64,000 nucleotides of DNA from Azolla caroliniana (lineage: Eukaryota > Plantae > Polypodiophyta): NCBI GenBank assembly GCA_043228905.1, contig JBHGNT010000002.1, forward strand, positions 26,474,001 through 26,538,000, given 5' to 3'. Under the pieces are notes generated by a model. That model was not told the DNA's origin. It did no database searches and saw only the letters and a list, made by a program, of their open reading frames with translations. Below are positions 3,629 through 52,986 of the stretch, one piece after another; position 1 is the first letter of the stretch; the number at the start of each line of letters is the position of its first letter. The position numbers and the translations under genes were made by a program.

Positions 3629-3979
3629 CCTTCCACAAAAGATTGTAAAAATCTCTACTTTCTTTCATTTCATGACAAAAACATATATATATATATATAT
3701 ATATATACATACAATGATACATACATACATACATATATAGATATATAGATAAATAGATAGATATATCATATATATAATAGGTGACTATTACTCTTCTACA
3801 AAACAACTAGACTTTTCGTGAAGTTATTAAGGATTCTATGCCACTACATAAAACCCGAAAGCAAGGGAGGAGGACGAGGAGAAGAGGCCATTAACATCAT
3901 AAATATATATTCTAAAACCAAAAGCAAAACCAAACCCAATATTAACACCAATTCTTCTTCTTCTTCTTCTTATGATGGA

Positions 3980-6900
3980 ATGGGCAATCCATCCGAACAC
4001 CACAAAATAACCCTTGCAGAACTCTTCAATAGTTCCCCTACTAAATCAACAGCCCATACCAATGTTGGTAATAACAACAATAATCTTAATCCACAGAAGA
4101 CTACATATGTGACCCCTTCTTCTCCTTCTCCTTCCCCTTCCCCTTCACCTCCTTCTCATTCTAAGAAAACATTTGCCCCACCCTTTACCAAGATATTGTC
4201 GAGCACCGGCAACAACATTCGAAGCTTATCACGGAAGTTGTCGTCGAAACATGTAAGAGATGTTTATATAAACCATTCAGGATCCCTCCTTATAAATCCA
4301 TCATCTGTTACCTCGCCCCCATCGATAAATCGGCATCATGTCCACCACCATGAATCATATGACATTTTTAATGGAGATGATGGTGTTTTCAATGATCAAT
4401 ACAATGAGGTGAGTGCCCCTAATAATGATTGTGGTGATTTGATCGGCCCCATCGATGATGATAATATCGGTCATGTTGATGACCCGATCGACATCAATCT
4501 TAGTACTATCAAGCCGGCAGTGAAATTATATCTAAGCGAGGATTGTGTGACCACCGAATCATCATTTGCAAACCACCAAGTATTTGAACCCAATCATCAT
4601 CTTCACGAAATCGATGATGCCACCATGGTTCCGACGAAGAAGGAGAAGCGCAAAGTCAAATTCCGGGATAGCATCCGTTACATTCTGGTGCCTAATGATG
4701 TGGCGACCGTCTCTAGTGCGAGGAACAATCCTGAGCTCACCAATGATTCTGAATCCATGGAAGTGGATCATATGAATGGGAATCAACTGAAGATTTGGGA
4801 AGAAGAAATGATGCAACATTACAGTTACAGTCCGAAGGAAGAATCGGTGCAGGGAATGAACAATATGACGAAGAAATCGGGGGCGGCGGGATTGTTTGGG
4901 AAGGTAGGGTTGATGACACCGAGGCAGACATGGAAGAAGAGTGGTCATTACTTCTCTCAAGAATTAGGAGGTCGAACGAGGGCGGCATTAAATTGGGCAC
5001 TGCCAGGGAAGAAGAGGCAGTATTATTCACAAGAATTAGGGATGGTGACCACGAGGCAGGCGGGGGCAGGGGCGGTGGCGCCGCTAGATGGTTTGGCGGT
5101 GGCCGCCAAATCTAGCGGTCAAGTGGCGGCGGAGACATGGCAGGATACAGGAGCAGGGCCTGCGGGGTCACATGGCCATGGCCATGGAGGAGGAGGAGTA
5201 GGGCAGCAGGGGGCGCCGCTAAGTTTGGCGGAGGAGTCACGGGGGCGGAAGCAGCAGCTAGTGGTGCCGCCGCTAGATTTGGGGGGGCCGCTAGATTTAG
5301 CGGGGGCGGACGGACGGGACCAAAGAGGAGGAGGAGGCGGAGGAGCATTATTGATGAGAAGAGGAGGGGGTAGGGGACGGGAGAGTGGAACGAAGATAAA
5401 GGTGTATATCGAGGACGGGATGATCGGGCTGGGATGGCAGGACGGCGTCCCGGTCATGCTGTCCGCGGGCGCCTACGATTTCTCCGATAGCACGCACCAC
5501 GGCCGCAGCCGGGGCTTCTCCATCGTGAAGAAAGTGAGTGAGAAGACGGTGTACGTGCGCCACGGGAACCTGAACCGGCTGAGGATAGGAGACGGTGGGC
5601 ACCTCGGGGTGGCTTGGGTGGATGGGCGCCCCCCCGTTCTACTCCACTCGGGATCCGTCTCGTTGTTCTCGTGCCAGGACTTCAGGTTCATCACCACTAG
5701 TGACGACATGCTCGCCCTCAAAGAGTTCACACTCGGCCCCTTCCGTATCGTCAACGTCGCCGACCACGAAATTGGTGTCAAGTTCCGTAACCGACAACCC
5801 CAGGTGCTCAAACCCGGGAGGTAGGTACTCTTTTACTTCCTCTCTCTCTCTATCTCTCTATGTATGTATCTATGTTTTTGTACCAAACCATGGGTAGGTT
5901 TTTTGTGTTTCATCTCATAGGTAGGTTTCAAACTTAGCCGAAGCAACCAACTTCCTTTCCTTCGTTTTGGTTGACCATTAGTTGCGCGTCCGACCTTAAC
6001 TACTACTAATTTCCAGTACATGTATAGTTCCATTGGATTATGACATGACTTTATGAGCTTTTGTCTAGCCAAGGTGGACCAAACATGGTTGGTAGTGGCT
6101 ACAAGTCAAGTGGTAAATTAATATGTAGTGCCTATAGACATATTTTCGATCTACAGTTATATCTTTCACATGAATATTGTACAATGTGCTCTTCATCTTT
6201 TATGACTCAAATCCATTCATTTAATACATAATTTAGTGCTTAAACTTTATCTCGATTTCTTTAATACACTTATATGACTCTCACGAAGTTATGTCCAATT
6301 AATGTGACGGTCCCGTCATACTCAAAATTGGTGTATGATTTACGAACATTAGTCATTGTCTAACTAAAATGGGAAAAAAAATTAGGGATAAGAAAAATGG
6401 CATGCTTTCTATCTCTAGATTCAAAATTTTGAAAATATTTTTGTTTTCATGCATGATGAGCGGTTGTAGAGAAGTCGTTGCATACCTACCTACCTAGATG
6501 CAATCCATACCTTTTCATGCTTTTATATATTGTCATACTTTATATGGCAAGGGCCTTCCCATGCTAGCTTCCTTCAAGTAAGAACACTCCTCCGATCAAA
6601 AGTCCACCAAGATCACACAACTACAACCGCTAGTATTTAAGGTGGATCCCATTATCAAGTTAATTACAAAGATGGAAGGAGTGCATGTGACAAGACAATG
6701 GTCAATGTGACAACAACTATTAGATCATGTGATATGCTTGCATGTTTAATATCCACATTGTAGGGGTCAATGATGTAGCCATGCCATGAATCTTGAGACA
6801 ATAAAAGAGCATTGTATTCAATGTATAATAGTTATAGAGCCAAGGTAAATCATAAGAACTATTTATACCGATGAACTATACTGTGGGGGGTGTTTGTGTG

Positions 6901-9134
6901 GACCAAGCATCTACATAGCGGATGGCCACCTTTGGAAAGGGCCAAACAACAAAAGTGTGATCATTAGCTTGGACACATATGGTATAAATAACTTATAGTT
7001 TCGATATATAAAGGGTTACTACAATGCTCCTTCATCCACTCTAATCATTCTAGGGAGGATTTCACTATTGTTAATGGTGGCAATAGGCATGCTGTTTAAA
7101 AATGAAGAATCCACTCTTCTACCCATGGCTCATCCTAATCACAACTCTTATGTAGTATTGAATGGATACTTAAGGGCTCTAGTTCGCTTACTGAATCTCA
7201 TCTCTGATATATTCAGTCTAGGAGGCAAATCTACAATACTTTCTTCTTTTCTAATTTAATGCTTTGATATCGGTGCTTCATTACATTGGCAATGATGCAC
7301 ATGCCATCAAGATGAGAGGCTAGGCCCATTGATCGACATGATGCATAAAATCTGAGATGTGATTGGAATAGTACATGGAAATCAACGATTTCCTTGTGTT
7401 GTTCCAAGCTTGTTGTTTAATAGTACAAAGGTTGTGTTGTTCTCAACAAGACATTGCATGCGAAAATGTAATGCGAGACCATATGCTTTCTATGTCACAT
7501 AGAGTTTTGATGCACCAAACTAAAGCTACATAGATTACCTTGCTCAATTTCTAGTACTTAATCATAGAAACATGAGGATATATAGTAAACATTCAGGTTG
7601 TGGGTTTCATTCTTGAATAATGGAGATTATCTTGTGTTTTATAAACCTTCTGTAGTACAAAAGTTTGCTTCTAAAATAGGCCTAACAACTTTGACACATG
7701 TCAAAATTTGAAAACCCAATGGGTTGAATACAATAGCATCAATTTGTAGAAGGTGTGGGCATTGGGTAACAAAGAAGTTGATGTATAGTAGTTCAATCTC
7801 GGCAAAAGTTCCACAACATAAAAGTAGAGTGAATGACCTAGGATTCAATACCGTGTTCCCTAGATAGCTACTAGTGTAAACATCTTTGGCATGATTGGTG
7901 ACTCTTTAAAAATATTCAATGACCTACGATAGAGTGTTACATTATGCGGTTGAGACCTAGCCCATCAACGATATTAAACAACAATCTTGTTAATCTAGAA
8001 ACCACACTTAGTTTGGTATACCTATTTTGAGGGACTCGTCAAATGTGAAAGGAGTAGATGCATGTTTTATGTGATGGTTCATTGTTGCTACCATACTAGC
8101 TTGTGAAGAGTAGGACAAATCAAGTGGACTAGCAAATTGTTTAAGATGAGTCACGAAAGGCAGATTAAATTTACTCATAATCATTGCAATTTGTTGAAGA
8201 TAATGTTTAACAACATGGTCATATAATGCCTCCAATATTAATTTGCTCCATGTACGCCATTTAGATGAGGCAGTGTGTGACCTCTTGTTTATGTCATTGT
8301 CGTTGAAGATTATTATACCATCTCTAAATTCCAAAATATTATTCATGCTTGACTTAGTTGCACACATGGAAATGCTCAATATTTGGTAAAATACTTATTA
8401 ATAAATTAATGCAAACTCACCAATAGGCAAGTGATGATGTCTACACGACCCTTAAACATCTAGACTGGTCAATTAGAATGTAAATATATATATATATGTT
8501 TGTTTTTCTCGATCTTTTTCATTGCTAGTGTGAAATAAAAGCATAAAAATATCTTACACTTAGATACGAGCTATTCTAAATTCAGAATCCTTTTTCTATA
8601 CCAGACATTACTTAAGCATGACAAAACTGGAGGTTTTTGCTGGGTTTGAGTCATTATTAAAGAGACAAAGTAAAATCGATGGAGTAATAGCAACATCAAA
8701 AGATGACACGAAAGTAATTGTTGACATAGTCTTAGAATGGCAAATAAAAGCTGAAGATGCGACTTTTGCCCGCCTTGCAAATATCAGCGATGTTGAAACT
8801 GTTGTTTGTGAAAAAACTCGCCGAGCCTTTCATTTAGTTATGTGGGACACCAATGCACAGGATTTACAGGTTGAGATAGTGAAACAAGGTGATGACCTTT
8901 TGCAATCTACAATTAACACAACATCATCAACTCTACAATCTTCCTTTAAAGACATATCCGCCAAAGTCTCAAGAGAGTGTATGGAACTCTTCGAAGAGGT
9001 AATCAAGTTTTTTAAGTTGAAGAGTTTATGTGAAGTTTATGATGCTAGAAATGGTTGATCATGCCATTTTCATGGTATGATGATGTGAGATTAAACCACA
9101 TAATGGATTTATTCTTTCTCACCATGCATATACA

Positions 9135-9170
<36 letters not shown>

Positions 9171-9323
9171 TATATATGTATATGTATATTCTACAATAAT
9201 CATGTTATAACGATGTGGTGTGCCATTTGTTAACCGCAGGGATGGACAATCACCCTATGGGATTTGCAATTGAGCAACATGATAATATCGCACAAATCCC
9301 AATTTGTACAAGATAATATGTAA
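3980..9323 (+). CDS. SPFH/band-7 family protein with tandem SPFH1-like repeats (vacuolin-like architecture) and a long low-complexity N-terminus; exons 3980-5820, 8605-8998, 9240-9323 (about 772 aa)
   Basis: First in-frame ATG is at 3980. GT-AG junctions are phase-compatible and give ...QPQVLKPGR|HYLSMTKLEVF... and ...ELFEE|GWTITLWDLQLSNM. SPFH2-like segment: IATSKDDTKVIVDIVLEWQI. Three repeats of the form V/I-x-D/E-G-x-I/LGx-W/F-x-D/N-G/R-x-PxxL-x-G. Confidence 0.8.
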
Positions 9324-12300
9324 AATAAATAAATCTTAGTGATGGTATGTTATGATGTCCCTGGGAGATTTTTCATATGAAACCCTAAGAATGTACATAG
9401 TGTATAATTGTTATAAAGAGATACATACAATGCCAGATTGATTCATGATTTTTATCATTGTATATTGAGTGAAAACACTCAATCTGGTCTTTGAAGGAAA
9501 TTTATTCCATGACTCTTTGAAAAGAGTGGTGTGAATTATGTTCTATTCAACAAAATATAGTTTTTGCGCTATATTAAGAAGCTATGAGGAGACGATGTGA
9601 ATGGAAAATGAAGCAGCAAGGAAGCAAGGAGGCGACAAGAAAGAGGAATCCATTAAATGACCAAACCAATTTTAATAATGCATCTGTGATGTTAGGGCGA
9701 TTGAGAAGCACTTTACAATAAGAGGATTCGTTTGGTGCCATTGGCAAATACATGTTGATGGATGTACTAAGGGGCTTTATATTTGGTAAGCTTTTGTGAA
9801 ATTGCATGGTTTCATATTATTTCTCAACATGTAAGATATTTGTACAACATATTTCCTAACCAATTCATCAAGTAACAAATGAGGGAGCCCACTGTGTGAT
9901 ACAGTATGATGCTTCCTTCAATTGACCTAAAGAAATTGAAGGAATTGTTACATCATCATAGACACCAAGCTCATTCAAGAATTAACAAGAAATTGGCATA
10001 CCAATAAACAATGTATAATAGTGGAGCTATTTGTATGTTGAAATTCATTGGAAGAAACTTGTAATGTTGAGCATCGGACTTAGAAACACAAGTTTTGCTT
10101 TTTATGTTTATTTTAATGATTTGAACTCTATATGAAAGTGGGGCAATTCATGACAGCATGCTTTGCTCTTAATATCGTGTCTCTAAGTCTACACCATTAT
10201 AATCTGTTGTCATTATAGATGTTTAATTATTTGCTTGTCCTTTCTAAAACATGATTAATTTCACTTATAATTTCTTCAATTCCATAATTCATTGTTATTG
10301 TAAGACGAAACTCTTTAATAAGCTTTAATTATTTGCTTCTCATTTCCGAAATCAGATTTAATTTCACTTGTAATTTCTCTTATTGAATCTTAAGCTATTA
10401 TCCTTACTAATTGATAGTTTAGTTAGTGGTGCATTACACCTTATTTCATAAGGTAAGCTAGAATTTAATGTTTAGCATACACTTTTCTAAATTGTGATTT
10501 TTATTAAAGTCACATGACGTGTCTGTTGTGAACTTGCTATAGCTTTTATATTGTACACGTTAGGCCATTACAATGAACAAGCATGCCTTTATTAAAGACA
10601 TCTTTTATGAGTTGCACTTGTATATTGTGAATTTAATTAGTTCAAATATTACAAAATTGTTATTTGGGGGTTATGAGTTTCAATGTTAAAAAACATTTGT
10701 ACATTTTTATACACGAAGGCTAGAAAAATTGTCGATAAATAAATAAATAAAAAGAGGTGAAGACAACCCCTTGGCATCGTTTACATGTCAATTAGATCTT
10801 GTTCTTTCACCCTGCAAACATCTTACATACATTTTATCTTTTCAATGTGGGAAACTACTTCACCGTTGGTGTTACCATGTCAAGATAAAAGAAATTCACA
10901 TAAAATGTGAGGTGATGTGTAGGCTCTCCAAGAAGTGATTCTTCATAGGAGAGCCCCTATGATAAATGATGTGTATTCCATTATGACTCTCTTTGTTGAT
11001 AAGGCATCCCATGAAGAGGGACCCTAGTTTTTGTATTTGCATGTGACTTTTTTGCATACATTGTCCCACATTACACAATTTGGGTGGGGTTTTGATTGCC
11101 CAAATCTTACAAAGGCAGAAAATTTCCATCTCTTAAGGGACGACAAGACCTTCAAACGAGGGTTATGAAACACATATGATATGTTTATATTCCTTAATGG
11201 CATTAAGAAACATAGGAGAGATTAGTAGTGTCAATGACAACTATAAGTTTAGGATTCAAACACAAGGCTTCAAGATTAACGTTGTCGTATCAAACAAATA
11301 TGAGCTAAGGAAGGCTTGAAGGAGATGCACTTCTAGGGACATTTTGTATGAGGAGAGCATGCTTGGAAGGAACCTAAACTTTAAGTCTTTGAGTCTTGGC
11401 ACTCAAATAGATCAAATACAACATGCAACCTTTGATTTCCATTATGTAGGCAAATGCTACATAACCATGCAATTTGTTGTGAGTGTGACACACAAGATCT
11501 ATGTGCAATTATTTGGGCAAGTGCAATAAGTTTTCCAAGGAAAACACTAATCTTACACCCATTCCGAAATTTGTTTATTTGCTTAAATTAAATAAAATTG
11601 GACATAAATTTATTTGTGTATCACATGGAAAAATCTTTGATTGTGACTTTGTCCTTCAACAAGGTTCCTATCGTGGCTTTTCACCCCACCTATGAATTTC
11701 ACAATACTCTCTCTTCAAAATATTAAGATCAATGTCTTGTTTTTTGGGGAAAAAAAGGATCAGTGTCATGTTTTTAATGATGACAATATACCCTTAACAT
11801 TTTAGAAATGGTTAGAATAATGTAAATACCCAAAAACACTGACAAAAGAGAGAGAGGTAGATATAAGGTTCTAGCACCACACCACCAATTTGAATATCAT
11901 TCTTGCATCTGAGTACCAATAACAATAGTTTTAGAACACTATGAATGAGGTTTTTGGAGGTTCTATGTCACATGCATGTGAATTTTCTTTTGTCAAGTAG
12001 ATTTACATGTTCAATCCCTGTTTGAAGTTTCTTTTTCAGAATAGTCTTTTTTGAAGACTTAATCTAATAGTATACTTTCCTCAATATTTAATCTAATAGA
12101 CATTATTGTTACAAATCACAGATTTTGTCCTTCTCCAATCAATGATATATTTTGTGAGTGGAGACCATTTTGATTCATTACTTGACCTTAAGAATTTAAT
12201 GGTGATGTGTGGCAAGTGTAGCAGATGGATACATGCTACAAATTAATTACTTGTTAAAAGCAAGAGGAGTCCATTATGGTCTCAAACTTGCCTTTCCATT

Positions 12301-15359: not shown

Positions 15360-15960
15360 AGTTTTGTTTTATAAAAGATTTTCTTCAATAGTATTAAGAA
15401 CAAAACCCGAAGGCTACAACTTGAACCTAGCTACCAAGGAGGTTACAACTTTTCCTATACAATGTTGTAAAATACAAGGATGTTTACATTTGTTGATATT
15501 CAAGAAAGAGTCCATGGAAAGTCGATATTGCCATTGAGGCTCTTGAGTTGACATTGTAAACAAGGGCACCTTTTTCCATAAGTGAAGAAGCTTTTTCCTT
15601 TTCTGGTTCACAGTATCTGGGGAACCCCGCATATTGTCATACTGGCCACAGACTACTGCAAGCAAGTTCTCCCATATCTCAAACAACACATCTGAGAGAT
15701 GAATGTCTACCCCATCATAAAGTCGGTTACATCGATATTTCCATAATGCCCATAATGTTATTGTGGTCACAGTTTTCCAAATTTGGACAGATCGCACCTA
15801 CTTGCGAGGTTGTTGGAAGGGACTAACTAATATCAATCTTCTATTATGTATTGTCATTGCCTCATGAACATCGTTTGCCTCATACAACATCAAGCCAGAA
15901 TGTTATAGGAAATGTGAACTTGACGTCATCCTAGATGTAAAACCCCATTGGCATCCATTA
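15360..15960 (-). mobile_element. 3' fragment of a LINE (non-LTR retrotransposon) ORF2
   Basis: ORF 15414-15797 reads IWKTVTTITLWALWKYRCNRLYDG, the typical plant L1 post-zf-RVT 'W.IW..RN...F' region. It parallels the segment at 37440-37510 and has an A-rich 3' end. Confidence 0.7.
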
Positions 15961-21400: not shown

Positions 21401-23028
21401 GTATTGGTTAGTCTCGTACTCTATGTCTTCCTTGTCTAGGTTGTGGTTTTTAGTCTCATATTTTCCTATGGTCTTGCTTGGCTAGGTTATTCAATACATA
21501 CAAATGCTGCATGAAAAGGTCAAAAGATATGAGACTGGAGAACATGGGATATTGCAGCAAGAAAGGACAAAACTCATCTCATGGGATGTGGGTGACCAAA
21601 TTATCATTTGAATGGAAGTTATAAGTGTGTTTGTGCATATGTTAATTTTTAAACAATGTTGGCTATCGTGGGAACTTATCGCAGAAGAATTCTGGGCATC
21701 GAGAGACAACTCCTAACAGTTCATATGTTCCATTGGTCTCCACCTTAAACTATAACACAAGGGAAATTTCAGATTCAAATGGATGTATGGAAAAAAGTCC
21801 ACTGAGAACAAATGAGAATACAGTTGCAGCCTCTGAATTGTTAGTCTCTAAACCTGCATCATTAACTTTCCCTCAACATCAATCGATAATATCTACATCA
21901 GAGCAAGCTAATTCTATTCCTATGTTTCGTGCTGCTAATAATAATAATATGTTTGGTCATGGCATTTACAATGATGAAGTCAAGGCCAAGAGCTCTCTGC
22001 TTAGCTTACAACAGTCAAATAACCATTTGGCATCTCAAACTTCAAGTTATGTTTTGGATCATGAACACGAGAAATTCAGAAGTTCGGAGAATAATCTAGC
22101 TGTTACAAATCATCAGAGATCAGATAACGAACTGGAGGATAGTAAAAGATCCAACTGTCAACTTAAAGAATTATACCGTCCTGATGCAATAAAGCATTCT
22201 GGGAATAATGATGACAGTTCAGTACACGTTTCTGATGGGGCCAAAGAAGAAAGAAGAGCACGGTGTCAATATGATAGGCCGAAAGATGCGCGAATGGCTG
22301 AAAATAACCAAGATCCTCCAGCAATTCTTGGTGGTGTCATTAACATATCTAGTGCTTATTCACAAGGGTGAGTGACTCATGCAATGTTATTTTTTTCATA
22401 AGTTGTACTTTTTGGGGAACGCCCAACCTCAGATTTTGTTTAGCCCCCCCCAACCCCTGAAGAAAAAGAAAACCCAGAGAGAGAGAGACTCTAGGGTAAC
22501 TGGGAATTCTTCCGTGTTTATGATTTTAGAATTTTTCTAAGGTTTTATGTGTTGTTTTAACTTCGTTTTTTTCTTCTGATGATGCCACAGACGGTAGGGT
22601 AATTGGGAATTCTTCCGTGTTTAGGATTTTAGAAATTTTCTAAGGTTTTGTGTGTTGGTTTAACTTCGTTTTTTTCTTCTAATGGGCATCATCTCAGCAG
22701 GTTGCTTGACACATTAACAAGGGCATTACAGAGTTCTGGAATAGATTTGGGCCAAGCAACAATATCAGTGAAGATAGATTTGGGTAAACCTAGTGATACA
22801 GTCGGGACAAACTCAAATATGGTATGGGTACATAGATATTAACTATACGTCAATTTTTTAAGTTTTATTCACCGTTCAAATACAGTCCTCTTTATTAATT
22901 GATACATTGTTTTTCGTTAACAGTCAGCATTGCACATGGAAATGCCATCTTCACAAAGTAAAGAAACTAGTGTTTCAAAAGAACCACAAGAACCAAGGAA
23001 AAGGCCCAAGTTTGAGATTGATACATAA
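18456..23028 (+). CDS. BIM: BIM-type (BES1-interacting Myc-like) bHLH transcription factor; firmer exons 20648-20762, 20888-20957, 21486-21587, 21685-22367, 22701-22821, 22924-23028; 5' exons approximate
   Basis: Spliced bHLH reads [55 protein letters not shown]. N-terminal HDFLSL motif and C-terminal [37 protein letters not shown] are characteristic of BIM proteins. Confidence 0.9.
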
Positions 23029-24743: not shown

Positions 24744-27700
24744 CTATGCTCCACCAATCTCAGCACGTTTTGCCTTCTTTGCTTGTATAAGTTTATCTAC
24801 TATGGGTGATTCAAGAGGACTAGCATCAACACACCTCTCTGCTGCTGCAGAAGAAACCTACAAAACACAAGGAAATGGCAACATTGTTCTTAAACATGAC
24901 TTTTGACTTAAGTTTGATCCTAACTGACATCATTTTATCGTTCAGTATTGTTTTTCTTTTCCATCATTCAATCGAAAAATAGTAAGGGGGCCTTCACTTC
25001 CTCTAGCGCACCTCATCCAAGAGGAATTGAATGATATCTTCGTCATCAACGACCTCTCGTAAAGGATCCCGCAAGTATTGAGTATCAACCTGTATCTGCT
25101 GAAACCCACTCCTGCTGAAAGTTTCTAGCCTCACATACTCCTGGAAACTCTTGAGGCTCAGTTTGATAACAGTTGAGATGACAGATCCCTACAAGCCATG
25201 TGGAATGTTAAATAAATATTTCCATTTTGCTCACTCACAATCCTTAATTGCAATACCTTGGAGGTAAAGACTATATATGTATATACAAAATGTAGAGTTA
25301 ATCCCACATCGTTCTATTACTAATAGTAATTCATCATCATCAGTATCCTAATCCTCCTTGACTCTCTCAACTTCAATGGGAATTACTTCAAAATGTTTTT
25401 TGGCTATCAAATAGTAAAACCTGAGTGTACTCCAACTTGGTGAAGATCTCCACTTTTTGTTTAAATAGCTTCGCAACATCTCTTTCTAACAAATGACTCT
25501 TAGTCCTTTGAGCGATGCTTGAACGGCTGATTCGGTCTTCTCGTAAAGGATTGCTTCTTGAAGAACTTGCACTTCCTGTGCTATCCGATCGCCTGTGTGT
25601 TCGTAGAGTTCCTGGTTCAAGCACTTCTTTAACCTCAATGCTCATGGTCTCAATCTACAGGACAATTTCCAAAGCCAAACTTTCAGATATGCAGAAGCTT
25701 GTCTTGCATAAATATGAAAATTAAGCTTACCTCTTGTAGATATAAATCCACAAACATCCGCACCTCTCGTGGTTCCTTGTACTGTAAACAAACTATTCAA
25801 TTTTATTAAGGAAGAACAAAAACAAAAATATATATAACATTCAGAACCAAAGGCTTTTACCCACCCCACCTTAAGCCAATTGGGCGTTGTCACACTTTTC
25901 TTTATCAACATTGAGAGCTTCTTCGATTGGATTAAGACATACTGCAAAACAATGTACAAGATAACGTGTTGATTACCCCACCAAATATGCCACAATCAGT
26001 ACTGCAAAAGAGTCATCCTAGTAAACAAATGTATCTAAACATGACCAGCAATACAGATCATAACAGTAGCCATCATTCCAATGATTGCATGGAGCATCTT
26101 ATTTACATCACACATACGTTAGAAGGAAGAATACACTGAGATTCGTGATTACGCCTCAATACAGGTCACAAGGGTAATAATAGCCTAAACCCCTAAAATA
26201 TAAAATGTGGTGTGTGAGCATTCTGAAAACCACCTCCTCATACTTCAGTGATTCACAACAAGTATGATCAGATAAAAATATTTGCATTTTACACCACCTC
26301 TGTTAATCACAAAAACTTGGTCCTTGTGATGAAATCATGCAAAAACAACACTAGGAGAAATTGGATAGTCTTCAATTTCATGTTACATTTTGACAAGCTG
26401 TAATAGTCAATTAGAACTCACATGCTGAAGAAGTTGATCTCCTGTTGCTCTGTAAAGTCTACAAATCTCTGTTGGTATAAATGGAGGCCGATCCTTGGAA
26501 CCTTGTGTTCCACCTCCAGTGAATGAAGCAGCTATTTCCTGTATTTATGGCTTAACATATTTATTTGCAACCCAACTACAGAAAGAATTATTGCTAACTT
26601 GTTGAATACATTTGCTCAAGCACTGCTATTGCCATTTGAAGCCATGTGCATCATAACTTCTTTCATTAAGTATGACCACAATAAGTATTACGTACACTAA
26701 ATAAGTGATACAACAAATGACCCTGGCTAAAGAGCTAGACTCATCAAAATACTTGTACTCGTCGGGATACCTCTGTTATCTTTGGAACAGCGAACTGTTC
26801 TATATAGATTGAAAATCGAGCAAGCAGTAACACAAGCCCACTTGATGCAAGAATCTTTTTTCTGCTATCTTCAGGTACACCCTCTTGTTTGGAGTTGTCA
26901 TGTGGTGTTGATGTGCACATTGCCAGAAAACGATGATTCAGCATCACAAAAAGATCTTGAATACCTCCTTGTACCAAGTCAACATAGAGTGAGCGCCAAT
27001 TGACCATTAAATCCCCTTTATCATCAAGAAGCTCTTTCAAATTCTGCACGGAAATACAAAAGAGAAAAGTGCAATGCCAAAGAATATCATCAGCATTTAC
27101 AGAATTGCATGTTCAGGCCTCTCAAAAGGAATCAAAACTTTTGGTCCAAGGAGATTCTACCGACAACATGTCAAGACTGCCTTGAAAAATGATATTTTGA
27201 GCATTTAAGAGCACTCTTTCCAGTGATTTCTTTCCATTCACAATATCTTTATTGTTTCTAGCTTGTATTGAGTTAGCCACCAAAAGAGCAGCTGGGTTTC
27301 AAAGACATTGAAATATGATCATGAGATGATGTTCACAACTTGAAACACGCAGCAATTTAACATCCTAACATCATTACCAATCAAATTATCATGCAGTCCT
27401 CTAAATCTTCGGGTGACATGTTGTCTCACAGCACCTTCTGCTGCCTGCAATCAGCATCAGTTTTCTTCAAGGAAAAGGAACAGATAGACCTTAATATCAA
27501 AAAGATCACTGGTAGAAATCGAATGTACAGTACCTGCAACGCAAGCAGAGGAAGACCTGCATCAGGTACAACTTCATCCATTTGAGTGACATCTGTGGAT
27601 AAAATTTCTGCAGGATAAAATAAAATTGTGACATAAGTCAGCATGATGTGTAGAATAAAAATTACAAGTACAATACGCATCACCCACTGCCTAATACTTC

Positions 27701-36599: not shown

Positions 36600-37720
36600 G
36601 AATGGGATTATTTTCAAATTTTCAGGTTTTATTGGGAGTTCGTGGCCTTGGAGATGATGGTACTTTCTTAAGTTATGATGTTCTACAAGATGGATGATTA
36701 GGGATGATTACCCGGGAAGATGAATGTTTGGCTAAGGCTATATTAAAACCTATTAGAATTCTAGCTAATGTAGATAAGGGTTGGGTTCTTGACCCTAATC
36801 CTAATGACGTGCATCCATGGTGGGATCTATGGGTAGTGGGGAAAAAACCATTATGTGAATTGAATTGGGACCCATGAGAATGGAAGTGGTTGCCTACATC
36901 ATATTCTGGGGAGGATGTTAGGCTGATTCCGTTTTTTTAGTATTCTGTTTGATTGGGAAGGGAGATGATAAGACGTAGGGTACCCCATTGGTCGACAACA
37001 GCAACAAAATGGTTGACTTGTAATGTGGATCCTACTCACATGACAACATTTTGGAAATGGCTATGGGCTCTTCAAATTCCAAAGAAGATTATTCTATTTA
37101 GATGGTTGATTGTTAATTATGTGGTTCCTATTAGGGCTTGGATGTATTGTAAAGAAGTGGATAAGATGTGTGATTTTTGTGGTTTAGAAGTGGAGTCTCT
37201 TCATCACCTATTTTGGTCATGTATGGCTGCCAAATTGGTTTGGAAAAGATTTTTATGTCTCTTGCATGAGGTTTATGGCTCTAGAATATATAAATGGGGG
37301 GTAGATATATGGGCTAATATAAAGGGCGAGGTACAAGATTATGAAAAAGAAAATGTTAACTTTGCATTATATACAAGAGGTCGATATGTTGAGGAAGTGC
37401 CGCCATATATACCTATTAATTCAGTCCAAAATGGCATGGTTTGGGAGACGATTAGTTCAATAATCATATGGGTTTTGTGGACTAGTAGATGTCGAAGGAT
37501 ATTTCAGCAAATTCAATGGAATGTTGTGGATGACCTTAGTGCATACACTAAAAGGAGAATATGATGCTATCAAAGGTGATCCAAATGTAGTCTTTTGAAA
37601 GCAAGAGGTTTTTAAGAAGAGATGGGAAAGGATGAAGGTATTCTGCATGGTTAATGGTGGTATACGTTGGAGGTATCAACCACCACTTTGGGTATTTCCT
37701 CCACCGACATGAGGCATGTG
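36600..37720 (+). mobile_element. 5'-truncated LINE remnant with a zf-RVT domain
   Basis: ORF 36953-37564 reads FWKWLWALQIPKKIILFRWL..CDFCGLEVESLHHLFWSC..AKLVW, then IIWVLWTSRCRRIF. The upstream part has stop codons. Confidence 0.8.
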
Positions 37721-37829
37721 TCAATGTATAACTATTATTACTTATGCTTTGGGACATACATAGGTCTATAGCAGTCTAAGAGTAGTTGAAAGGGACTATG
37801 CCAAATTTTGTGACCTATATTTTTACCTT

Positions 37830-39560
37830 GAAGACATACATAAGCCTAAAAGATATCAGAAGAGGGCAAGACACCCATAATTAGATCATTGAAAGGGAGT
37901 TTGATTCAGATTCGTGTCTTGTGGTGATTCTAGTTTATGCGTATGCTAAATGTGGCATTTTTGAAGATGCTACTGCAGTAATCGGACTACTATCAGCCAG
38001 AGGCAAGGTTTTCATAAATAGCCTTATTGAAGGGCAAAGATGTGTCACTATACAACGGGATACATCAAGCTGAAAATTCATGGAATCACATACATCCAAT
38101 CCGAAATACAAAGTGCAAATTGTCTCCAAAATCAATCAACCAACAACAAGATGTACATTTTAATTAGGAGACATTGAGAAAGTATGAAGATTATAGGTAG
38201 ATATTGTATACATTTACTGGCATCTTGATGTAAAAGTTTATTGGAAGAGAATGTTATTCTTGATAATACTTTTGTTGACGTGTATGCCAAATGTGATGAT
38301 TTGGAAAAAGCTCAGTTGGTGTTTGATGAACTTCCTATTCAAGATTTGGTCTCATGGAGTTCATTGATCTCGAGATATGCTCATCATGGCCACAACGAAG
38401 GTGCATTGAAGTGTTTCAAACAGATAGGCATCACATTCACTTGCACCTTGAAGGCACGTGGAATAGATAGGGGGAAACAAATCCACCATATGAAATGCTT
38501 AAACAAGCATGTCGAGCCCGACAATGTGTTGGTGGATATGTATGCAAAATGTGGTGAGCTAGAAAAAACCGCAGGAAGTGTTTGATGCGCTTTGTGTTCG
38601 TGACGTTGTGTCAATGGAATGTTTTGATCTTTGGATATGTTCCGCAAGGGGAAGGAAGCAAAGCTAAAACTTATTTCAAGAGGATGTAGTGGAATCACTT
38701 CTTGCCAAATACAATCGCCTTTATTTGCATATCAAAGGCTTCTTCAAGCATAGGGGCTTTACATAGAGGTGAGCAAATTCATAGTGAAATTGTAAGTGAA
38801 AGATTGATCGGTAAAGTTTAGAAACTAGATACTGCTTTGGTGGATATGTATGTCAAATGTGGCGAAGTAGGAAAAGTACAAAAAGTCCTCAAGGGGCTAC
38901 CGATTCTTGGAATGCACTAATTTCATGATATTCCCAACATAGATTTGGCTAGGAAGCATGGAATCCTTTTGAAAAAATGCAAAATGATGGTCTTTCTTCG
39001 GATGCAAATACCCTTGTAGTTTGCTAAAGGCTTGTGGCAGTGTAGTCGTGGTTGATAACTGCATAGAAATTCACAATGAAATCGTGAGTACGAGACTGTT
39101 GGAAGACAATATTGAGCTTGGGAATGCTTTCGTGGACATGTATGCTAAATGTGGTGAGCTTGAAAAAACCCAAAAAACATTCAATGATCTTTCAGTTCGG
39201 GTGGGCTAAACAATGGATGTGAAACCTACAAGCCACCAACCAACCATTTGTTTAATGCATCTTGGATTATTCAAGCCCTTCAAATCAACATTGACAGTCA
39301 CTACAACGTTGTTAATGCTTGCATTTGCCGAGCAATAATTGACGCCCAAAAGCTTTGATGAATTATTGTTGGTTGGAGATATGGTACAATGGACTACCAT
39401 GTTATTCGGCTATATTGAGCATGCTATGCAATTTTATCCTCAAATGCTTGTGGCTTCCTCTTACCTTATATGATGACATTTTTTGGTATGTTGAAAGCAT
39501 GTGGCAGCATGGGAGAATTGTTTGTACATACAAAAATGAAATTAGATTTTGTGATGGATG
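37830..39560 (+). pseudogene. Decayed PLS-class pentatricopeptide repeat (PPR) gene
   Basis: Repeated (L/F)VD(M/V)YAKCG(E/D)LEKA..VFDEL...DLVSW..LI motifs near 37930, 38270, 38530, 38840 and 39130, plus LKACGS motifs, broken by frameshifts and stops. Confidence 0.85.
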
Positions 39561-44230: not shown

Positions 44231-44608
44231 TTCGTCTTTCTCTGATTTAGCTCGTAACTTTTAATCCTTTTCTGCATATTGTCTTCCCTTCCTCCTCTTT
44301 CTTCTCCGATCTAGTTCACTCCTTCAATTCTCCCCTGCATTTCCCCCTTTTTCTCATCCTATTTCTTCCTTCTCTGGCCACATTTCCCCCTTCTTTTCTC
44401 TGAGTCGTTCTCAGCAGATCTACTGGAAGATGGTCTCCTCCGCTTCATCCTCAGTGTGTACATGGCTTCTGAAGCTTATTCACCTCCTTAATCCTCCAGC
44501 ATAATATCCCATACACACACAACCACGCTCCGTCTGCATCAAATAAGCTCTAGCTCAAACCCACTGTTAGGATTGCAAAATTTAGGCTTCTAGTTCTTTT
44601 TTGGAACA

Positions 44609-46957
44609 ATGTTGCAAGCTCCTGCTCACCACTTATCTAGGGTTTGTGGTCATGGACATATCAAGAAGTTCTGGCTTATGCAAACACAGAAGGAAAACCA
44701 GTCCTGTGATCAGGGAAACAAAAACAGTGTTATAGTTTCTTCTTCATCATCCTCTTCTTCACCGATATATGGAAACAGAGTATCTTCATCAACATCACCA
44801 ACATCATCATCATCTTCATCAATGAAATTACTGGATGTTTCACAGAGGTGTTCCCCCACTCACATAACAACTACTCACGTGAACACCCATCTAACAGCAT
44901 CAAGCTCTGGCTTTGGTGAATCTCCATCTACAGGATTAACGCATTCTTCTTCTTCGAATTTCTCAAGAGGGATTTCCCGTTCTCTCTGTCAAAGGCCTTC
45001 TTCATTGTCGTCGAAAGAGTGTGAGAAAGCTATTCTACAAGAGGATTCATCTTCAGAAGCCCAAGTCTTAAATGCATCATTCTCTTCTTCCTCTTCTTCT
45101 TATTCTTCTCCAGCACAAACGCCATCAATGAATCTATTATCTACTGTTGAAATTGCTTCGATGAATGATACAAATCATGAAGAAGTTTATGTCGGTGATG
45201 GGTCCCCTCCTGGCCCAACTTTAGAGAGTAATTTGACCTCTATCAATGGATACAGAGATAGTATAATTCAACATAAAATACAAGAAACTGTACCTATCGT
45301 TACTCCTTCCTCTGATGTGAAAATTCTCGTTTCAAAGGTTAGTCAAGCCTCTGTTGTTGTCTAGTCACCCAGAATTCTTTTGGGCTGGTATTTTGTTGTT
45401 TTTTATGTTTTGAAATTGAAATTGTTTTTTTCCTTCTATTGTGATTGTGGTTTGTTTGTAAGTTTGTATGCCTTTTTTGTGTTAAAATTATCTTCATTTT
45501 GATAAAAACATTACCCCATACTATATATATGTTCAACTCTAAATTGTTTATTTTTGTGTTTTTGCGTATTCAAGCTTATCTTCACCTTTGGGTTCCAAGA
45601 TTTTGATGTGCGTGCAGGTTCTTGATTTAAATGTTGCCACTGTAAGAACAGGGGATTCTTATTACTTCTTTGTTTCTTTGTGTTTTTTGTGGATTGTTAT
45701 TGTGAACATCAGCATACATTGTCCCTGTGTTTGGACTTTAAGAGATGTGGGCAATGTGGTGCCCAATTTATAGAGGAGCTTTTTTCAAAATTAGCATCTT
45801 TTCACTCGTTTATAAGCTCAGTTTCTTGTTCTAAATGTTTTTCTTTTTTTAATTCAGCTTAATGAAGGGGAAAATGTGGCCTCTGCAGCAAGACTGGATA
45901 TAAGAGAGTCAGGGATACATCCTCGTAGGTCTTCTGGCTATGAAGTAATTCACGAAAATCATATGGGTGTGTCAAGTAGGGAGAACCTCAATCGTGCAGA
46001 TTCTTGCCCTTCTCTAAGGAAGATCGAAGCAAGACCAATTGCTCCGGATAATCTTGGTAAATGGAAGAGTAGGAATAGCAGCTCAAATGGTAGCCGAATT
46101 GAGGTCTCTCCTCGTGGATCTACTCAACTTGTACTTAAAGCTTGTTCATTGTGTGGGACCACAAAGACTCCTATGTGGAGAAGTGGACCACAGGGCCCCA
46201 AGGTATGTGTGGATCTACTGGCTTTACATGATCTCTTTTTGTTCTATATAATTCTTTCTTTTTCATTCATTGTAGAGTTGCTTGATTGATGTCCCAAGTT
46301 AGGTGATATTGTTAGGTTTCTTTCCATATCTTTGATCTTGTGGAAATTATATTTTTGTTTTTAATAATATATGTTGTTTGTGGAAAGCTCAATGTAACAT
46401 AGGAATGGCAACTCCTTAACATGTTTGTCAGGGCAGTCAAATAAATATGTATTCTCAATACATGAGTAATGATGCTTTAATGTCATTTTTTATTGCAGTC
46501 TCTATGCAATGCATGTGGCATTCGGTTCAAGAAGTATCGATCTTTTCCAGGGCATAATGACCCAGACCTTGCGGTTCCATTGCTCAGAAATTCATCACCT
46601 TCTCCTTCCAAGTATCTTTCAAGACCTTTAAAGAGAAAGCAAAATAATAATACTTTTCTCACACAAGAGGTGGGTCTCAAGCCTTTTGCTTCTGATGTTT
46701 CTCGGCATCAGAAGAAAAGCAAGTGGCATCAACTGGTGATAAAAAGAGATCAAGTTGACTTGTTAAGAGATACCCCCAATGCCTGGAAAGTTTCATCTGG
46801 ACCAGCCTCATTGAAGAAGATATATGGGTGCATGCAGTCAAGGTTTAAGAACTTAGGTCCTGGTGAAGAGCATCTAACCATGAAAAGAGTTTTTGCAAAA
46901 GATGAAGAAGAGGCTGCTGTGCTTCTTATGCACTTGTCATGTGACCTTGTCTGTTAA
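44609..46957 (+). CDS. LLM-domain B-class GATA zinc-finger transcription factor; exons 44609-45337, optional 45618-45641, 45858-46202, 46499-46957
   Basis: Spliced finger CSLCGTTKTPMWRSGPQGPK|SLCNACGIRFKK (C-X2-C-X18-C-X2-C). C-terminal EEEAAVLLMHLSC is the LLM motif. Ser-rich N-terminus. Confidence 0.9.
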
Positions 46958-48116: not shown

Positions 48117-51100
48117 TCAAACATATGAGTAAACACCGCGACCAGATTTCTTGCCAAGCCAGCCGGCATCCACATAGTGAACAAGCAATGGACAGGGTCG
48201 ATACTTACCATCACCCAGGCCTTGATGTAGAACACGCATAATTGAAAGACAAGTATCAAGGCCAATGAAGTCTGCGAGCGTAAGGGGTCCCATTGGTTGG
48301 TTAGTTCCTAGCCTCATACCACTATCAATGTCATCAGCTGTGCCCACTCCTTCCATTAGTGCATAAAATGCCTCATTGATCATAGGCATGAGAATGCGAT
48401 TGACAATGAAGCCAGGATAATCTTTTGAAAAGCTCACAGTCTTCCCAAACCTGCCAACATACGTCAATAATTGTATTTGGCACCTTGGAGCTCTTAGTTT
48501 ATTGTTTGTTTTCCTATCCTCCTATATGTTTACAGGATATTGAAGAACATGCATAGGGAAAGAAGTAGATGGGGAATTTGGCTGCTTGGAAAAACCCAGA
48601 TCAACTAAACCTAATTTGGTAAGTATTTTCATTAAATCCTCCAATGGATTATTCATGCAGTTGCCAACTTGGACATAGCCAAAATTAATATATATAATGT
48701 TAAAATATGGTGCACAAGAGTATCAGTATTAATGAAGTTCTGTTCAGTGGATTGATATCAGGGTCTGTTGAAAATATCAGTATCAGTGATAGAGCTGATG
48801 CCAAATATAAACCAGTATGTGCCGGAACCAAAAATTCAAAAATTTAAAATCTATGTTCCAGATCACACTGAGATTTAAAATGGATGAATTGAACTATTGA
48901 TGATGCCATTTGGGAGAAAGAGGCAACTTTTCTATATTTTCATTGCAAGACTACCATTTTTTATATGAGGAGTAATATTAAGTGCAAAACCTTAACATAG
49001 TATTTAAGGGTAAACTTCTAATGGTTTTAAGGGTATACGAGGAGTTGCGACAACTCACATAAGGTCATGATATGTGGCAACATGCAGTGACCTGAGGACC
49101 TGCGTGCAAATATAAAATGAGTAGCTAACCTCAATAAAAGAGAGACATTGGTGGTGCAATAAGGCTCTTGTTGCAATAGCACAGTGTTGATTGTGCCCAA
49201 ATATGAGGAGTTGTGACAACTCACATAAGGTCATGATACGTGGCAACATGCGGTGACCTGAGGACCTGCGTGCAAGTATAAAATGAGTAGCTAACCTCAA
49301 TAAAAGAGAGACACTGGTGGTGCAATAAGGCTATTGCTGCAATAGCAGTGTGTTGATTGCGTCCAAGTATGACATTAGGCACTATTTGGTGGTAGGGGAT
49401 GCCTATGGTGTTTAAGATCCTAAATTAAGTTTGAGCGAAGAAATTGAGACGAATCTTAAACACCATCAACATCCTGTACCACTGAATATTTCCTAAGATA
49501 GTATGTTATTGTAGCGACAACCTTGACATACCACTGATGTCTCACAACTTTCTGATGGAGATGTTTGTCTCCCACGTATTGAGGTTAGGTACTCATTTTA
49601 TACTTGCACTTTGTGACCAAATAGATCTTGTTGATCACAACAATATTTCAAGGATGGGTGATCAGTTGTAACCATAAACCAATTTCCAAATAAGTAATAT
49701 CTGATCACAAACAAATCCTTTTCTTTAACCGAAAATCAACATTCAGTAGGTTTTAAGTTTTTACATTCAAATGCAAAGGGTTGCCATCTAGATAAAAAGC
49801 AACACCCATCGTATAATTGCTAGCTTCGGTTTCAACCTCAAAGGGTTTTGATAGGTCAGGAAGAATGAGTGTAGGAGCAAGGCAAACAAGTTCCTTAAGA
49901 ATGTTTAAATTATTATCAAGTTAATCATTCCAAATTATTGGTTTAACAATCTTAGGTGTCTGACCTTTTAAAAGCTTAGTATGGTTTTAAGTCAATTTAG
50001 AATAACCAACAAATCCTAGAAATGAGAGAAGTTCATGGACATTACGTGGAATAGGCCATAATTTGACCTTCAATAATATATTAAGGTTCTGCGTGTAACA
50101 AAACTCAAGGCATATTATTATGCCATCAAGTTTGCCAAATATTGGAGGATTAGTCACAAAAGTCAGAGGAGCTCAAGTAGAGTGAAGATCTTAAAGTTTA
50201 TGATCCCCTTAAACAAAGTAAATAGATATCTACATTGTGCAAGCATTGGAAACTGGTTTCTCTAAGGATTATTAGTTGGTTGAATCCTAACCTACAACCT
50301 TTAACTACCACCATTCACGAATAATTATCATGTATTATTGGACACTTTCAGAATCTTGCCATACTTCTTTTCGGCAGGAGTTGCCAGTGCTACTCGAGAT
50401 TGATGAAGAGTTTCAGGTCAAGAATTCAACCTCATGTTAATGGTATGAGCCCTGAATCTACACTATCCATATTAATAACATACACAGAAAGTACTCCAAA
50501 TCTCTAAATCATGACAATATTTGAGAATTTCATTATCTTTGTGCCTGGAAAGTGAAGCATAGAGAGCAATCGCTCATGAAACTCATTGCCAGAGAGATAG
50601 AAGATCTCAAGGACATAAGCTTTGTGGAAATTTCTAGAAAATTGTAGAAATAATGACATGACAGTCTTCAACCTTCTATGATGACATGAGCTGGGGGTTT
50701 CCCAACCTCAGATTGATGCCTAATTTGTTGGTTTCACGACTCACTTTTGGAAGTGAGTTGTTCAAGCCCCTTGTGTGCATTTGCATGTGTAATTTTATTC
50801 AGAATTATTCTAGATGGTGAAACTATGTCAGCTTTTTTAACACACACCATACATATTAAACTATGTTATGAAATTATGAAACAGACCTTTCAGCTAGATC
50901 TTTGGTAGTTTCTACAACAGAGTCATCTGTAGCCAAACCTCTCACAACTTCTACAAGCTTCATTACTGGGGGGGGATTCATGAAGTGCATGCCAATAACC
51001 TGAATAATGATATATAGAAATAGTTAGAAGAAGAAAACATAGTGAAATTTCTTTACACGCAATGACTTTGGTTTCAAGCATTACATGCCTGATTGGGTCG

Positions 51101-52211
51101 TGACGTCGCAGATGATAGCCGAGTGATTGAAATGGAGCTCGTATTCGATGCTAAAATCGCCGAAGGCTTCACAATCTTATCTAACTGTGTAAATATTTTC
51201 CTTTTCAGCTCTTCATTCTCCGAAACAGCTTCAATAACAAAATCTGCAGCATTTAATTCTTCCATAGAGGTTGTAGCCTTTATGCGTGCAAGTGATTCAT
51301 CCATCTGTTCCTGCACTATGCAAAAGCATTCATTATTCCTGGCAATAAATATGACCCTTTAAGGCTTATCATTCATGTATGCTTCACAAATAATTCCTAA
51401 CCATGAGTATTAAGGATTTTAAGAGAATAGACAAAGAGAAATTGTCTCTATTATGTCCTACTTTTATGGTACGTGAGACTATGACAAAACATGTTATATT
51501 TTATCTTTTGAAATGCTTGTAAAATCAATAAAAAAAATGTCTTTTAATTTATTAACGTTATTTTACTTTTAATGCTTAAATGAAGACCTTATCACGACTT
51601 CTATTTTCCGATTTCACATAGATTCAACCTTATACAATGAATGCAATCTTAATCTTCAGAACAATCAAAGAAAACCAATCTCCTGGTTTTAATACTGAAA
51701 GTCGAGAATAAACTTGAACAAAGACATTAGCTTTCATATAAATTGAATAGCACACTGTTAATTTTTCTTCTTATGAAAGCTAATCAATGTCAAAAGACAA
51801 TTTCTTTACTATTAGATACTAGAAAATGAAGCTATATAAAGACAATTACCATTTCCTTGCGATTGCCTAAAGGTCAGTATTTTTTTGCTCTTTTTCGAGG
51901 AGCACTTAAAACAAGGTCTAATTTTACTTTTATTTAAAACCAAAGGAAAACACAAAAAATGTACTATATACACTTGAAGAACTGTAGTGAACCAAGAATG
52001 GAGTTAGGGTTACCTGGGAGAGAGATCCTTTCTTGACAGAGCGAGATAGGGATGAGGAGATGGCATGGAGCCCTCTGGAGAGGGAGACCTGATCGATATC
52101 AGTCATGAGAACATGAATGTCATGAGCCATAACAGCAGCGATCTGAGCTATTCCACTCCCCATCTGACCTGCACCCACCACACCCATGACCTTGATTGGA
52201 GAACAAAGACC

Positions 52212-52214
<3 letters not shown>
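48117..52214 (-). CDS. 3-hydroxybutyryl-CoA / 3-hydroxyacyl-CoA dehydrogenase; exons 52014-52214, 51089-51310, 50887-50999, 48117-48450 (289 aa)
   Basis: Rossmann motif [14 protein letters not shown], then [17 protein letters not shown], catalytic [20 protein letters not shown] and [14 protein letters not shown]. Exon lengths sum to 870 nt. Confidence 0.93.
49039..49609. mobile_element. Fold-back (MITE-like) element 49270-49609 overlapping an about 166-bp tandem duplication (49039/49205)
   Basis: gtgcaagtataaaatgagtagctaacctcaata is inverted as tattgaggttaggtactcattttatacttgcac. Inner arms atggtgtttaagat / atcttaaacaccat are also complementary. No TSD identified. Confidence 0.65.
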
Positions 52215-52246
<32 letters not shown>

Positions 52247-52986
52247 TCCCTCTGTGTGTCTCTGCCTGTGTGTGTTCTAGGAACTCAGGAAACATCGGCT
52301 CTCACACAAATCGGCCCAAACCTTCGTTTTGTTATTTCTCAGGAATGCCCCTGGGCATTTTCTTTATTTTGGCACAAGATGCCCCTGAGAATTTTTCTAT
52401 TCTACAAGAATGCCCTTGGGGTTTTTCTAATCCTTTATGATCTTTATCCGGAGAGCTAGCTTTTCGCGGCCTCCTTTTGCACAAGGGTGGAGAACACACA
52501 ACATAAGACTCTCCCCTCTCACATATTGCCCATCGCACCGGTCTCTGACAATACACTTACTAACCCCCCTTTGTTCTTCTTTAATTCCTTGCTTGTCCTC
52601 CTCCTCCCTGTGTAGTCGCCGATTGACCTCCCCATGCTGTCCGTTCGAAGAGACAACGAGGAACGTTTCTCGTGTCTCGACCTTTCTATGTATCACGCAT
52701 TTCGCTCCTTGCATCGGATAGAACCTTCTTATATCTTTTTGTAAGGTTATATATAATAAAAGGGTGGAAAAAATAAGCATATCTTTCAAAATTCCTCACA
52801 TATTTAGTAGCCATGGCCCACAAAGCACATTTTTGCTTAGCACAAAGTTGCTCAAGATGAAAGAAAAGCATGAGTTTTGTACTCAAGGAAAGGGTAATTG
52901 GAAAGTGTGACAACACCCATATATGTAAAGATTTTGAGAACTAGATGGCAATTTTACACATGTTAGATAAATTGAGTATCTATGTT

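Follow-up and report, generated by a model that had tools for sequence, protein, structure and literature searches.

SPFH proteins of plants are known from five canonical families (prohibitin, flotillin, stomatin-like, HIR and erlin), in which a single SPFH1 unit is followed by SPFH2 and a coiled-coil tail. What, then, is a gene that encodes three SPFH1-like repeats and ends directly after SPFH2? Such a gene lies at 3980..9323 (+) of a 64,000-nucleotide stretch of the fern Azolla caroliniana (assembly GCA_043228905.1, contig JBHGNT010000002.1, positions 26,474,001 to 26,538,000 of the forward strand), which we refer to as the window. Altogether, our results suggest that it belongs to an SPFH family of seed-free vascular plants that is real, conserved and apparently undescribed, and that branched off, without the tail, from multi-repeat Band_7 proteins of protist type.

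Results

The SPFH gene is transcribed and spliced

Three exons joined at AG|GT...AG sites yield a frame of 772 amino acids (aa) with one stop, which is terminal. Exon 1 (3980..5820, +; aa 1-614) is an open frame supported by contig cover and a donor joint and encodes the N-terminus, the first two repeats and the front half of repeat 3; exon 2 (8605..8998, +; aa 614-745) completes repeat 3 and covers most of SPFH2; and the coding part of exon 3 (9240..9323, +) supplies the last SPFH2 strand and a short tail without coiled coil, closing with the TAA stop at 9321-9323. The two introns, 5821..8604 (+; 2784 nt, GT..AG, phase 2) and 8999..9239 (+; 241 nt, GT..AG, phase 0), have the same positions in a paralogue described below. 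Both junctions, 5820/8605 and 8998/9240, are found in contigs of three of four public runs (X1, X2 and X3), while the fourth, X4, has almost no cover past ~5450. Within intron 1, no run has any read depth over 5887-8273, and the contigs are unchanged through the stop into the 3' untranslated region (9324..10000, +), which they cover up to the end of the stretch examined. The runs were only guessed to be RNA, none being on record as such, and their labels were not used as evidence; because the contigs contain spliced joints, transcripts are nevertheless present. The gene is thus confirmed as transcribed and spliced, and the spliced model proposed in a first-pass annotation of the window stands, both in its intact frame and in the use of its two predicted junctions.

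One contig carries a joint at 3970-5323 that we dismissed as an artefact of a microsatellite (21-letter side, non-canonical ends), and RNA editing was ruled out as the source of genome-contig differences because all change types occur. Just 5' of the main ATG, two out-of-frame ATGs (3972 and 3975, +) open a 12-codon overlapping frame (window 3972-4010). The GC content of third codon positions (GC3) rises to ~0.8 over the repeats (window 5231-5820, +) and falls to 0.3-0.4 in exons 2 and 3.

Three tandem repeats lead into an SPFH2 domain without a tail

Repeat 1 (aa 472-527; 5393..5560, +), repeat 2 (aa 528-584; 5561..5731, +) and repeat 3 (aa 585-629; 5732..8650, +, split by intron 1) start at about aa 472, 528 and 585, a spacing of 56-57 aa, and the window protein contains both linker strands, 'F..HG' and 'F..LGP'. 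A hidden Markov model (HMM) built from the eight repeats of one amoebozoan protein recovers three units in all 11 full-length plant proteins, the third scoring merely 2.7-10 bits; because this model contains amoebozoan repeats only, its recognition of the plant units places the repeats beyond chance. Repeat 3 matches the start of Pfam Band_7: in the homologues P0002 and P0009, the profile aligns from this repeat, beginning at profile position 2. Atlas gave leads of Band_7 type only, with the repeats weakly recognised, and a word-index protein search with the repeats found none among 160 candidates, a limit of the index, since HMMER then gave 70.

In a first AlphaFold2 (AF2) model based on 11 sequences, the predicted local distance difference test score (pLDDT) of the repeats was 36-76, and the window repeats were hence refolded with 89 sequences, giving an all-beta model with pLDDT 93.6 and a predicted template-modelling score (pTM) of 0.81. 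In VIA comparisons, repeat 1 of this model aligns to SPFH1 of QmcA (Z 4.3) and HflK (Z 4.2), its top rows, which tie with unrelated beta folds, as well as to SPFH1 of erlin and stomatin (overall Z 3.1-4.3, root-mean-square deviation (rmsd) 2.3-2.8 over 41-44 residues). Trp486 and Trp546 are invariant, the latter lying in repeat 2 together with C565, which is conserved in 11/11 full-length plant proteins; C682 is found in 8/11 and C739 in 9/11. Across the 11 proteins, including that of the window, 67 of 302 domain positions are invariant.

The SPFH2 domain (aa about 630-762; 8651..9290, +, spanning intron 2) was read on the fern-type homologue P0005, exon 2 of the window gene being 47-51% identical to such homologues. 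In the P0005 AF2 model (11 sequences), residues 304-428 mostly reach pLDDT 84-95, with dips at loops. By VIA, this region resembles HflK (Z 12.6, rmsd 2.6, 107 aligned residues), PHB1/2 (Z 11.9) and erlin (Z 11.5), the first non-SPFH row following at Z 7.1, and the Foldseek rows of the P0005 model at E 1e-5 to 1e-3 include MVP, PHB, stomatin and HflK/C. We take the SPFH2 fold of the window protein as confirmed by the predicted fold of this homologue. Profile libraries barely see it: Pfam detected no SPFH domain in any of the four exon pieces of the window gene, and at the curated Band_7 cut-off of 23.6 bits the Ceratopteris homologue passes (24.1 bits) while five of seven other homologues fall below (13.4-23.2 bits). 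NCBIfam gave no match above cut-off in nine proteins, and sequence searches of the PDB returned nothing useful. The window protein continues for only about 20 aa beyond the last-strand motif of SPFH2, and all 11 full-length plant proteins end 14-45 aa past this motif.

Upstream of the repeats lies a G/S/N/P-rich, low-complexity N-terminus (aa 1-470; 3980..5389, +), predicted from composition and hydropathy to be disordered and to lack a transmembrane helix or signal-like stretch. The maximum 19-residue hydropathy is 0.89-1.31 in 8/8 plant proteins, which is below membrane-helix level, and the N-terminus of the homologue model P0005, as distinct from the window protein itself, has pLDDT ~30. 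The motif TL[AG][ED][LF]F (aa 11-16; 4010..4027, +) is conserved in seven of eight plant proteins checked, being missing in Selaginella. The architecture drawn in the first-pass annotation, with ~470 aa of low-complexity sequence, three ~55-60-aa repeats joined by linker strands, an SPFH2-like domain and a stop right after it without coiled coil, therefore holds in each of its parts, and its reading of the repeats as SPFH1-like is supported, more firmly by sequence than by structure.

The gene belongs to a plant family known from ferns and a lycophyte

The genome holds one paralogue (G000:C11), with an identity of 53% over the repeats and 63% over exon 2, which has both introns at the same positions and ends after the same strand. 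Over 270 aligned codons, the two copies differ by a non-synonymous divergence (dN) of 0.39 and a synonymous divergence (dS) of 2.2, the latter saturated. The paralogue (L004:750-3980, +) encodes 620 aa; its repeats are preceded by an acidic D/E/G tract, and its repeat 2 carries a poly-His insert.

Beyond Azolla, an exon-2 profile recovered seven proteins among 3273 candidates, including those of Adiantum nelumboides and A. capillus-veneris, and a repeat profile run against 1.84 billion cluster representatives gave 70 matches, eight of them plant-type, including Ceratopteris richardii and Selaginella moellendorffii; organism names were looked up for 25 of the 70. One candidate, P0049, was a false match with FG-GAP repeats. 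In all, there are 13 distinct plant-type matches, four with an organism name (two Adiantum, Ceratopteris and Selaginella), and several share fern N-terminal motifs. Wherever they are full-length, these proteins have three repeats, no tail and a disordered N-terminus of 155-470 aa. Two separate sequences, P0008 (87% identity) and P0011, are of the same subtype as the window copy. We conclude that the family is conserved and likely dates at least to the fern-lycophyte split. The earlier suggestion of a lineage-restricted family is thus right in that the plant range, going by the named members, is restricted to ferns and a lycophyte, and wrong if taken to mean the oddity of a single lineage.

The closest relatives are multi-repeat Band_7 proteins of protists and bacteria

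Below the plant matches stand multi-repeat proteins, and 36 of 68 scanned matches pass the Band_7 cut-off. The relatives named from the repeat-profile search are Phalansterium, Ceratiomyxa, Soliformovum and Gymnodinium, and a search with a profile of the protist family collected 116 proteins, including those of Planoprotostelium (a 'prohibitin domain-containing protein'), Naegleria fowleri, Hexamita, Odontella and Epithemia. Named non-plant members have 5-8 repeats. Of 67 non-plant rows, the last strand was located in 31, and in 30 of these it is followed by an A/E/Q/K/R-rich tail of 137-283 aa. The plant and protist family profiles align by hhalign with 99.6% (E 9e-25), and plant proteins score 74-100 bits against the protist profile.

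This wider family (P0013-P0192), found in amoebozoans, Naegleria, Hexamita, diatoms and dinoflagellates, is seemingly widespread and conserved, with 40-60% identity and a layout between stomatin and MVP. A contig of a giant-virus metagenome-assembled genome (MAG) in IMG/VR (L022:2001-3617) carries a long relative with 25% identity over query residues 169-692, a possible transfer route. Multi-repeat Band_7 proteins of 870-940 aa on 29-107 kb metagenome contigs form a clade (99/100) that may represent bacterial copies of a eukaryote-type scaffold; its only member placed, P0014, comes from a Proteobacteria MAG (L009:3001-5712).

In a careful tree of 27 chosen rows, with six plant sequences and with prohibitin and flotillin as canonical members, the plant sequences form a clade (100/100) on a long branch (1.83), within which Selaginella is sister to the fern-type rows (89/81). 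Two larger quick trees give the same picture; from the first, 26 rows were dropped as fragments, duplicates or a false match. The resemblance to protist and bacterial band-7 proteins suggested in the first-pass annotation is supported, the closest kin being multi-repeat proteins of this kind.

The canonical SPFH genes of the same genome are distant. Its nine Band_7 matches, which we take to be prohibitin-, flotillin-, stomatin-like- and HIR-like loci, yielded frames that score at most 5.3 bits against the protist profile and at most 8.2 bits against the plant-family profile, although the frame picked in about three of the nine cannot be clearly recognised as the SPFH exon. Prohibitin and flotillin, both long-branched and the only canonical families in the tree, do not group with the plant clade. 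With its three units and no coiled coil, the family is separate from the canonical plant SPFH families, as had been proposed.

Neighbouring genes

Elsewhere in the window lie an intron-split gene for a GATA zinc-finger transcription factor (44594-46957, +) and exons of a 3-hydroxyacyl-CoA dehydrogenase gene (3HCDH; 48117-52301, -). Across 36953-38585 (+) and 15414-15797 (-) there are a zf-RVT retroelement fragment and a pentatricopeptide repeat (PPR) fragment; of these frames, the one at 15.4 kb resembles a similar retroelement remnant and has no Pfam match. Three exon-like frames, 26744-27112 (-), 56165-56503 (-) and 21646-22371 (+), have no Pfam match at E<=0.001; the first two may resemble a vesicle-tethering subunit and anamorsin, respectively.

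Discussion

Several observations weigh against reading the window gene as a working member of a membrane-associated SPFH family of seed-free vascular plants. The SPFH1 matches of repeat 1 rank 1-3 in VIA but tie with unrelated beta sandwiches (Z 4.0-4.3), and Foldseek with the repeat model gave no row at E<=0.001; the sequence evidence for SPFH1-like repeats is firmer than the structural evidence. The top Foldseek row for the whole P0005 model is MVP (E 1.4e-5). The window copy has Arg where 9/11 proteins carry Cys603 and Tyr where 8/11 carry Cys616, and it lacks the MVK.AQHI(E)W start found in the paralogue and five fern-type homologues. It pairs only weakly with the paralogue (87/64), with an end branch of 0.69 as compared with 0.28, and among the 40 of 69 rows listed, contigs of at least two runs share 11 coding differences from the genome, of which 8 are non-synonymous. 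In the tree, the nearest relatives of the plant clade, P0032 and P0070, join it with a support of only 80/81, and the backbone is unresolved. Finally, no seed plant or bryophyte is named among the 13 plant-type matches, of which only four have names, and each representative searched stands for a 50% cluster whose members could not be listed; it is thus from the representatives that we infer that seed plants and bryophytes are without the family.

Two histories would account for this distribution. Horizontal gain requires one gain and one loss, while vertical descent requires many losses; given the long branch and the weak sister group, we keep both, holding the former to have somewhat better than an even chance and the latter somewhat less than one. 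On either history, the gene would have entered, or survived in, the vascular-plant ancestor, the tail and 2-5 repeats would have been lost there, and vertical descent in lycophytes and ferns would have followed, with a likely loss in seed plants. The more specific proposal of a sixth plant SPFH family that came horizontally from a microbial eukaryote into the vascular-plant ancestor, was lost in seed plants and was converted from a cage-building scaffold into a tail-less one, with three repeats that dock on membranes, a single SPFH2 and a long disordered arm, and that would arrange membrane domains through open arcs or condensation rather than cages, is one that we regard as a speculative and rather doubtful scenario.

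How might such a protein work? By analogy with other SPFH proteins, we consider it an even chance that it is a peripheral membrane adaptor whose repeats and conserved cysteines provide the binding and which assembles no further than open arcs, short of closed cages. In our model, the SPFH1-like repeats, with Trp486, Trp546 and candidate S-acylated cysteines, would attach to the plasma membrane or an endomembrane from the cytosolic side, in the manner of flotillin SPFH1; the SPFH2 domains would touch side by side, weakly, so that dimers or open arcs result, of which SPFH folds without a tail are capable; and the disordered N-terminal arm with its TL.[ED].F motif might recruit partners.

The foremost alternative to this adaptor model is a soluble, vault-like assembly, in which repeats and SPFH2 would stack as repeats and shoulder do in major vault protein (MVP) into a cytosolic ring or shell without membrane binding, its disordered regions lying on the inner or the outer side. 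The order of repeats and SPFH domain is indeed that of MVP, no transmembrane helix is present, MVP heads the Foldseek rows, its shoulder reaches Z 7.9 with P0005 and its repeats R1-R7 reach Z 3.3 with the window repeats in VIA, and the available portion of PMC3762200 describes vaults as probably missing from plants. Yet the MVP Foldseek rows have a TM-score of ~0.19 and an rmsd of ~14, stomatin, HflK, PHB and erlin fit better (Z 9.3-12.6), and no Pfam Vault family was found in 75 homologues scanned. Moreover, the protist profile matches stomatin at 3e-8 and MVP at 0.036 only, through its coiled coil, and the cap helix that, according to the portions available of PMC3762200 and 10.1101/872010, drives vault assembly is absent from a protein that ends after SPFH2. 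We consider a vault-like assembly unlikely.

A still less probable explanation is that the family is functional while the copy in the window arose by recent duplication and, with selection on it relaxed, is heading to a new role or to decay. Its end branch, its missing start motif and the non-synonymous differences noted above are what this explanation would predict. Against it, the frame is intact and spliced, the invariant domain positions include those of the window copy, sequences of the same subtype (P0008 and P0011) exist, and the variant count is small and the strains are mixed.

We give less credence again to a role as chain terminator or decoy, in which the tail-less subunit would join the cages of a full-length SPFH protein via SPFH2 and limit their growth. 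Although none of the 11 full-length plant members has the tail and the genome does contain canonical SPFH genes (the nine Band_7 matches), the latter are very distant by profile score, and a genome search for a multi-repeat partner with a tail found none: a query with the nearest outgroup protein returned the two known loci and one weak tail-region match (3 of 99 candidates). Lastly, an artefact or contamination, be it a gene of protist origin that strayed into the plant assembly or a gene model arisen by chance, has a negligible probability: soil and aquatic protists are the closest non-plant relatives, GC3 jumps in the repeats and contamination was proposed earlier for plant 'MVP' cDNAs (in the available portion of PMC3762200), but the gene lies on a 28-Mb contig amid ordinary intron-containing plant genes (GATA, 3HCDH and PPR), which excludes contamination, the paralogue lies on a second, 22-Mb contig, homologues lie on large fern and Selaginella scaffolds and the plant subtree keeps the species order.

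The available accounts of SPFH cages (flotillin, HflK/C and HIR2 models) have them held together largely by C-terminal helices, and HIR2 nanodomains are lost without that part. A tail-less family across lycophytes and ferns would therefore reveal a use of the SPFH module that is independent of cages. It would add to the five canonical plant families, having been overlooked since it is hardly visible to Pfam and seems to be lacking in models of the Arabidopsis type; if it is indeed a sixth, rebuilt family, it would be a natural experiment on SPFH function without the wall helix. Ceratopteris carries a homologue, making the family testable there. More broadly, the layouts of stomatin type and vault type are bridged by a wide and apparently undescribed multi-repeat Band_7 family, with members in protists, in some bacteria and on a giant-virus contig. 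In the literature searched, with its limited coverage of subscription journals, we found no publication describing a tail-less three-repeat plant SPFH family, and in the literature searched none describing the protist multi-repeat family.

Comparison with known SPFH and vault systems

The canonical plant SPFH families share with the fern family the SPFH2 fold, and in homologues repeat 3 corresponds to the start of Band_7. They differ in having a single SPFH1, a coiled-coil tail and no long disordered N-terminus, whereas the fern family has three repeats and is tail-less. In the parts of the two papers that are available, the C-terminal part of Arabidopsis HIR2 is essential for oligomers and nanodomains and dispensable for membrane targeting (PMC13157961), and flotillin SPFH1 enters one leaflet via Trp and palmitoylated Cys while a helical wall holds the cage (PMC11260169).

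Dictyostelium vacuolins A, B and C, which had prompted the description of a 'vacuolin-like layout', are compared here by description only. Likenesses are the SPFH superfamily, a PHB domain placed away from the N-terminus (here aa 630-762) and cysteines. A further vacuolin trait is localisation to membrane microdomains on late endosomes. According to the available text of 10.1101/582049, vacuolins have a central PHB domain with two cysteines, for which palmitoylation has been proposed, and a C-terminal coiled coil that mediates oligomers; this text describes no membrane-spanning anchor, and the word 'repeat' is missing from its main text. As far as PMC4031984 is available, it describes them as SPFH members with a narrower distribution than TSET, with which they associate loosely, and as missing from pull-downs in Arabidopsis. 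Whereas vacuolins oligomerise by their C-terminal coiled coils, the fern family has no such coil, and the description is thus fair for the N-terminal arrangement and fails for the feature that defines vacuolins. No named vacuolin occurs among the 70, 116 and 7 rows of our searches, names having been looked up for 25 of the 70; P0191 and P0192 (598-621 aa), which do have a vacuolin-like layout, fall inside the wider family and are distant from the plant clade (hhalign 55%).

MVP, which has nine repeats and a cap helix and is not primarily a membrane protein, resembles the fern family in placing tandem small beta repeats before an SPFH-fold domain; it differs in that its structural fit is weaker than that of stomatin or HflK and in that no Vault Pfam match is found. 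FliL, a bacterial periplasmic motor protein with a membrane anchor and without repeats, has an SPFH fold that, even when isolated as a domain, assembles with itself into arcs or rings, and it serves as an analogy only (Z 8.4-8.6). In the portions of the papers available, isolated FliL-C forms partial rings (PMC8794807), and the stomatin SPFH domain alone gives fibrils (PMC9157467). Finally, the protist-type multi-repeat Band_7 proteins are like the plant family in the repeat unit, their last three repeats and the start of SPFH2 being collinear with it; they differ in having 5-8 repeats and a coiled-coil-type tail of ~140-280 aa, whereas the plant proteins combine three repeats with an extra disordered N-terminus and end without a tail.

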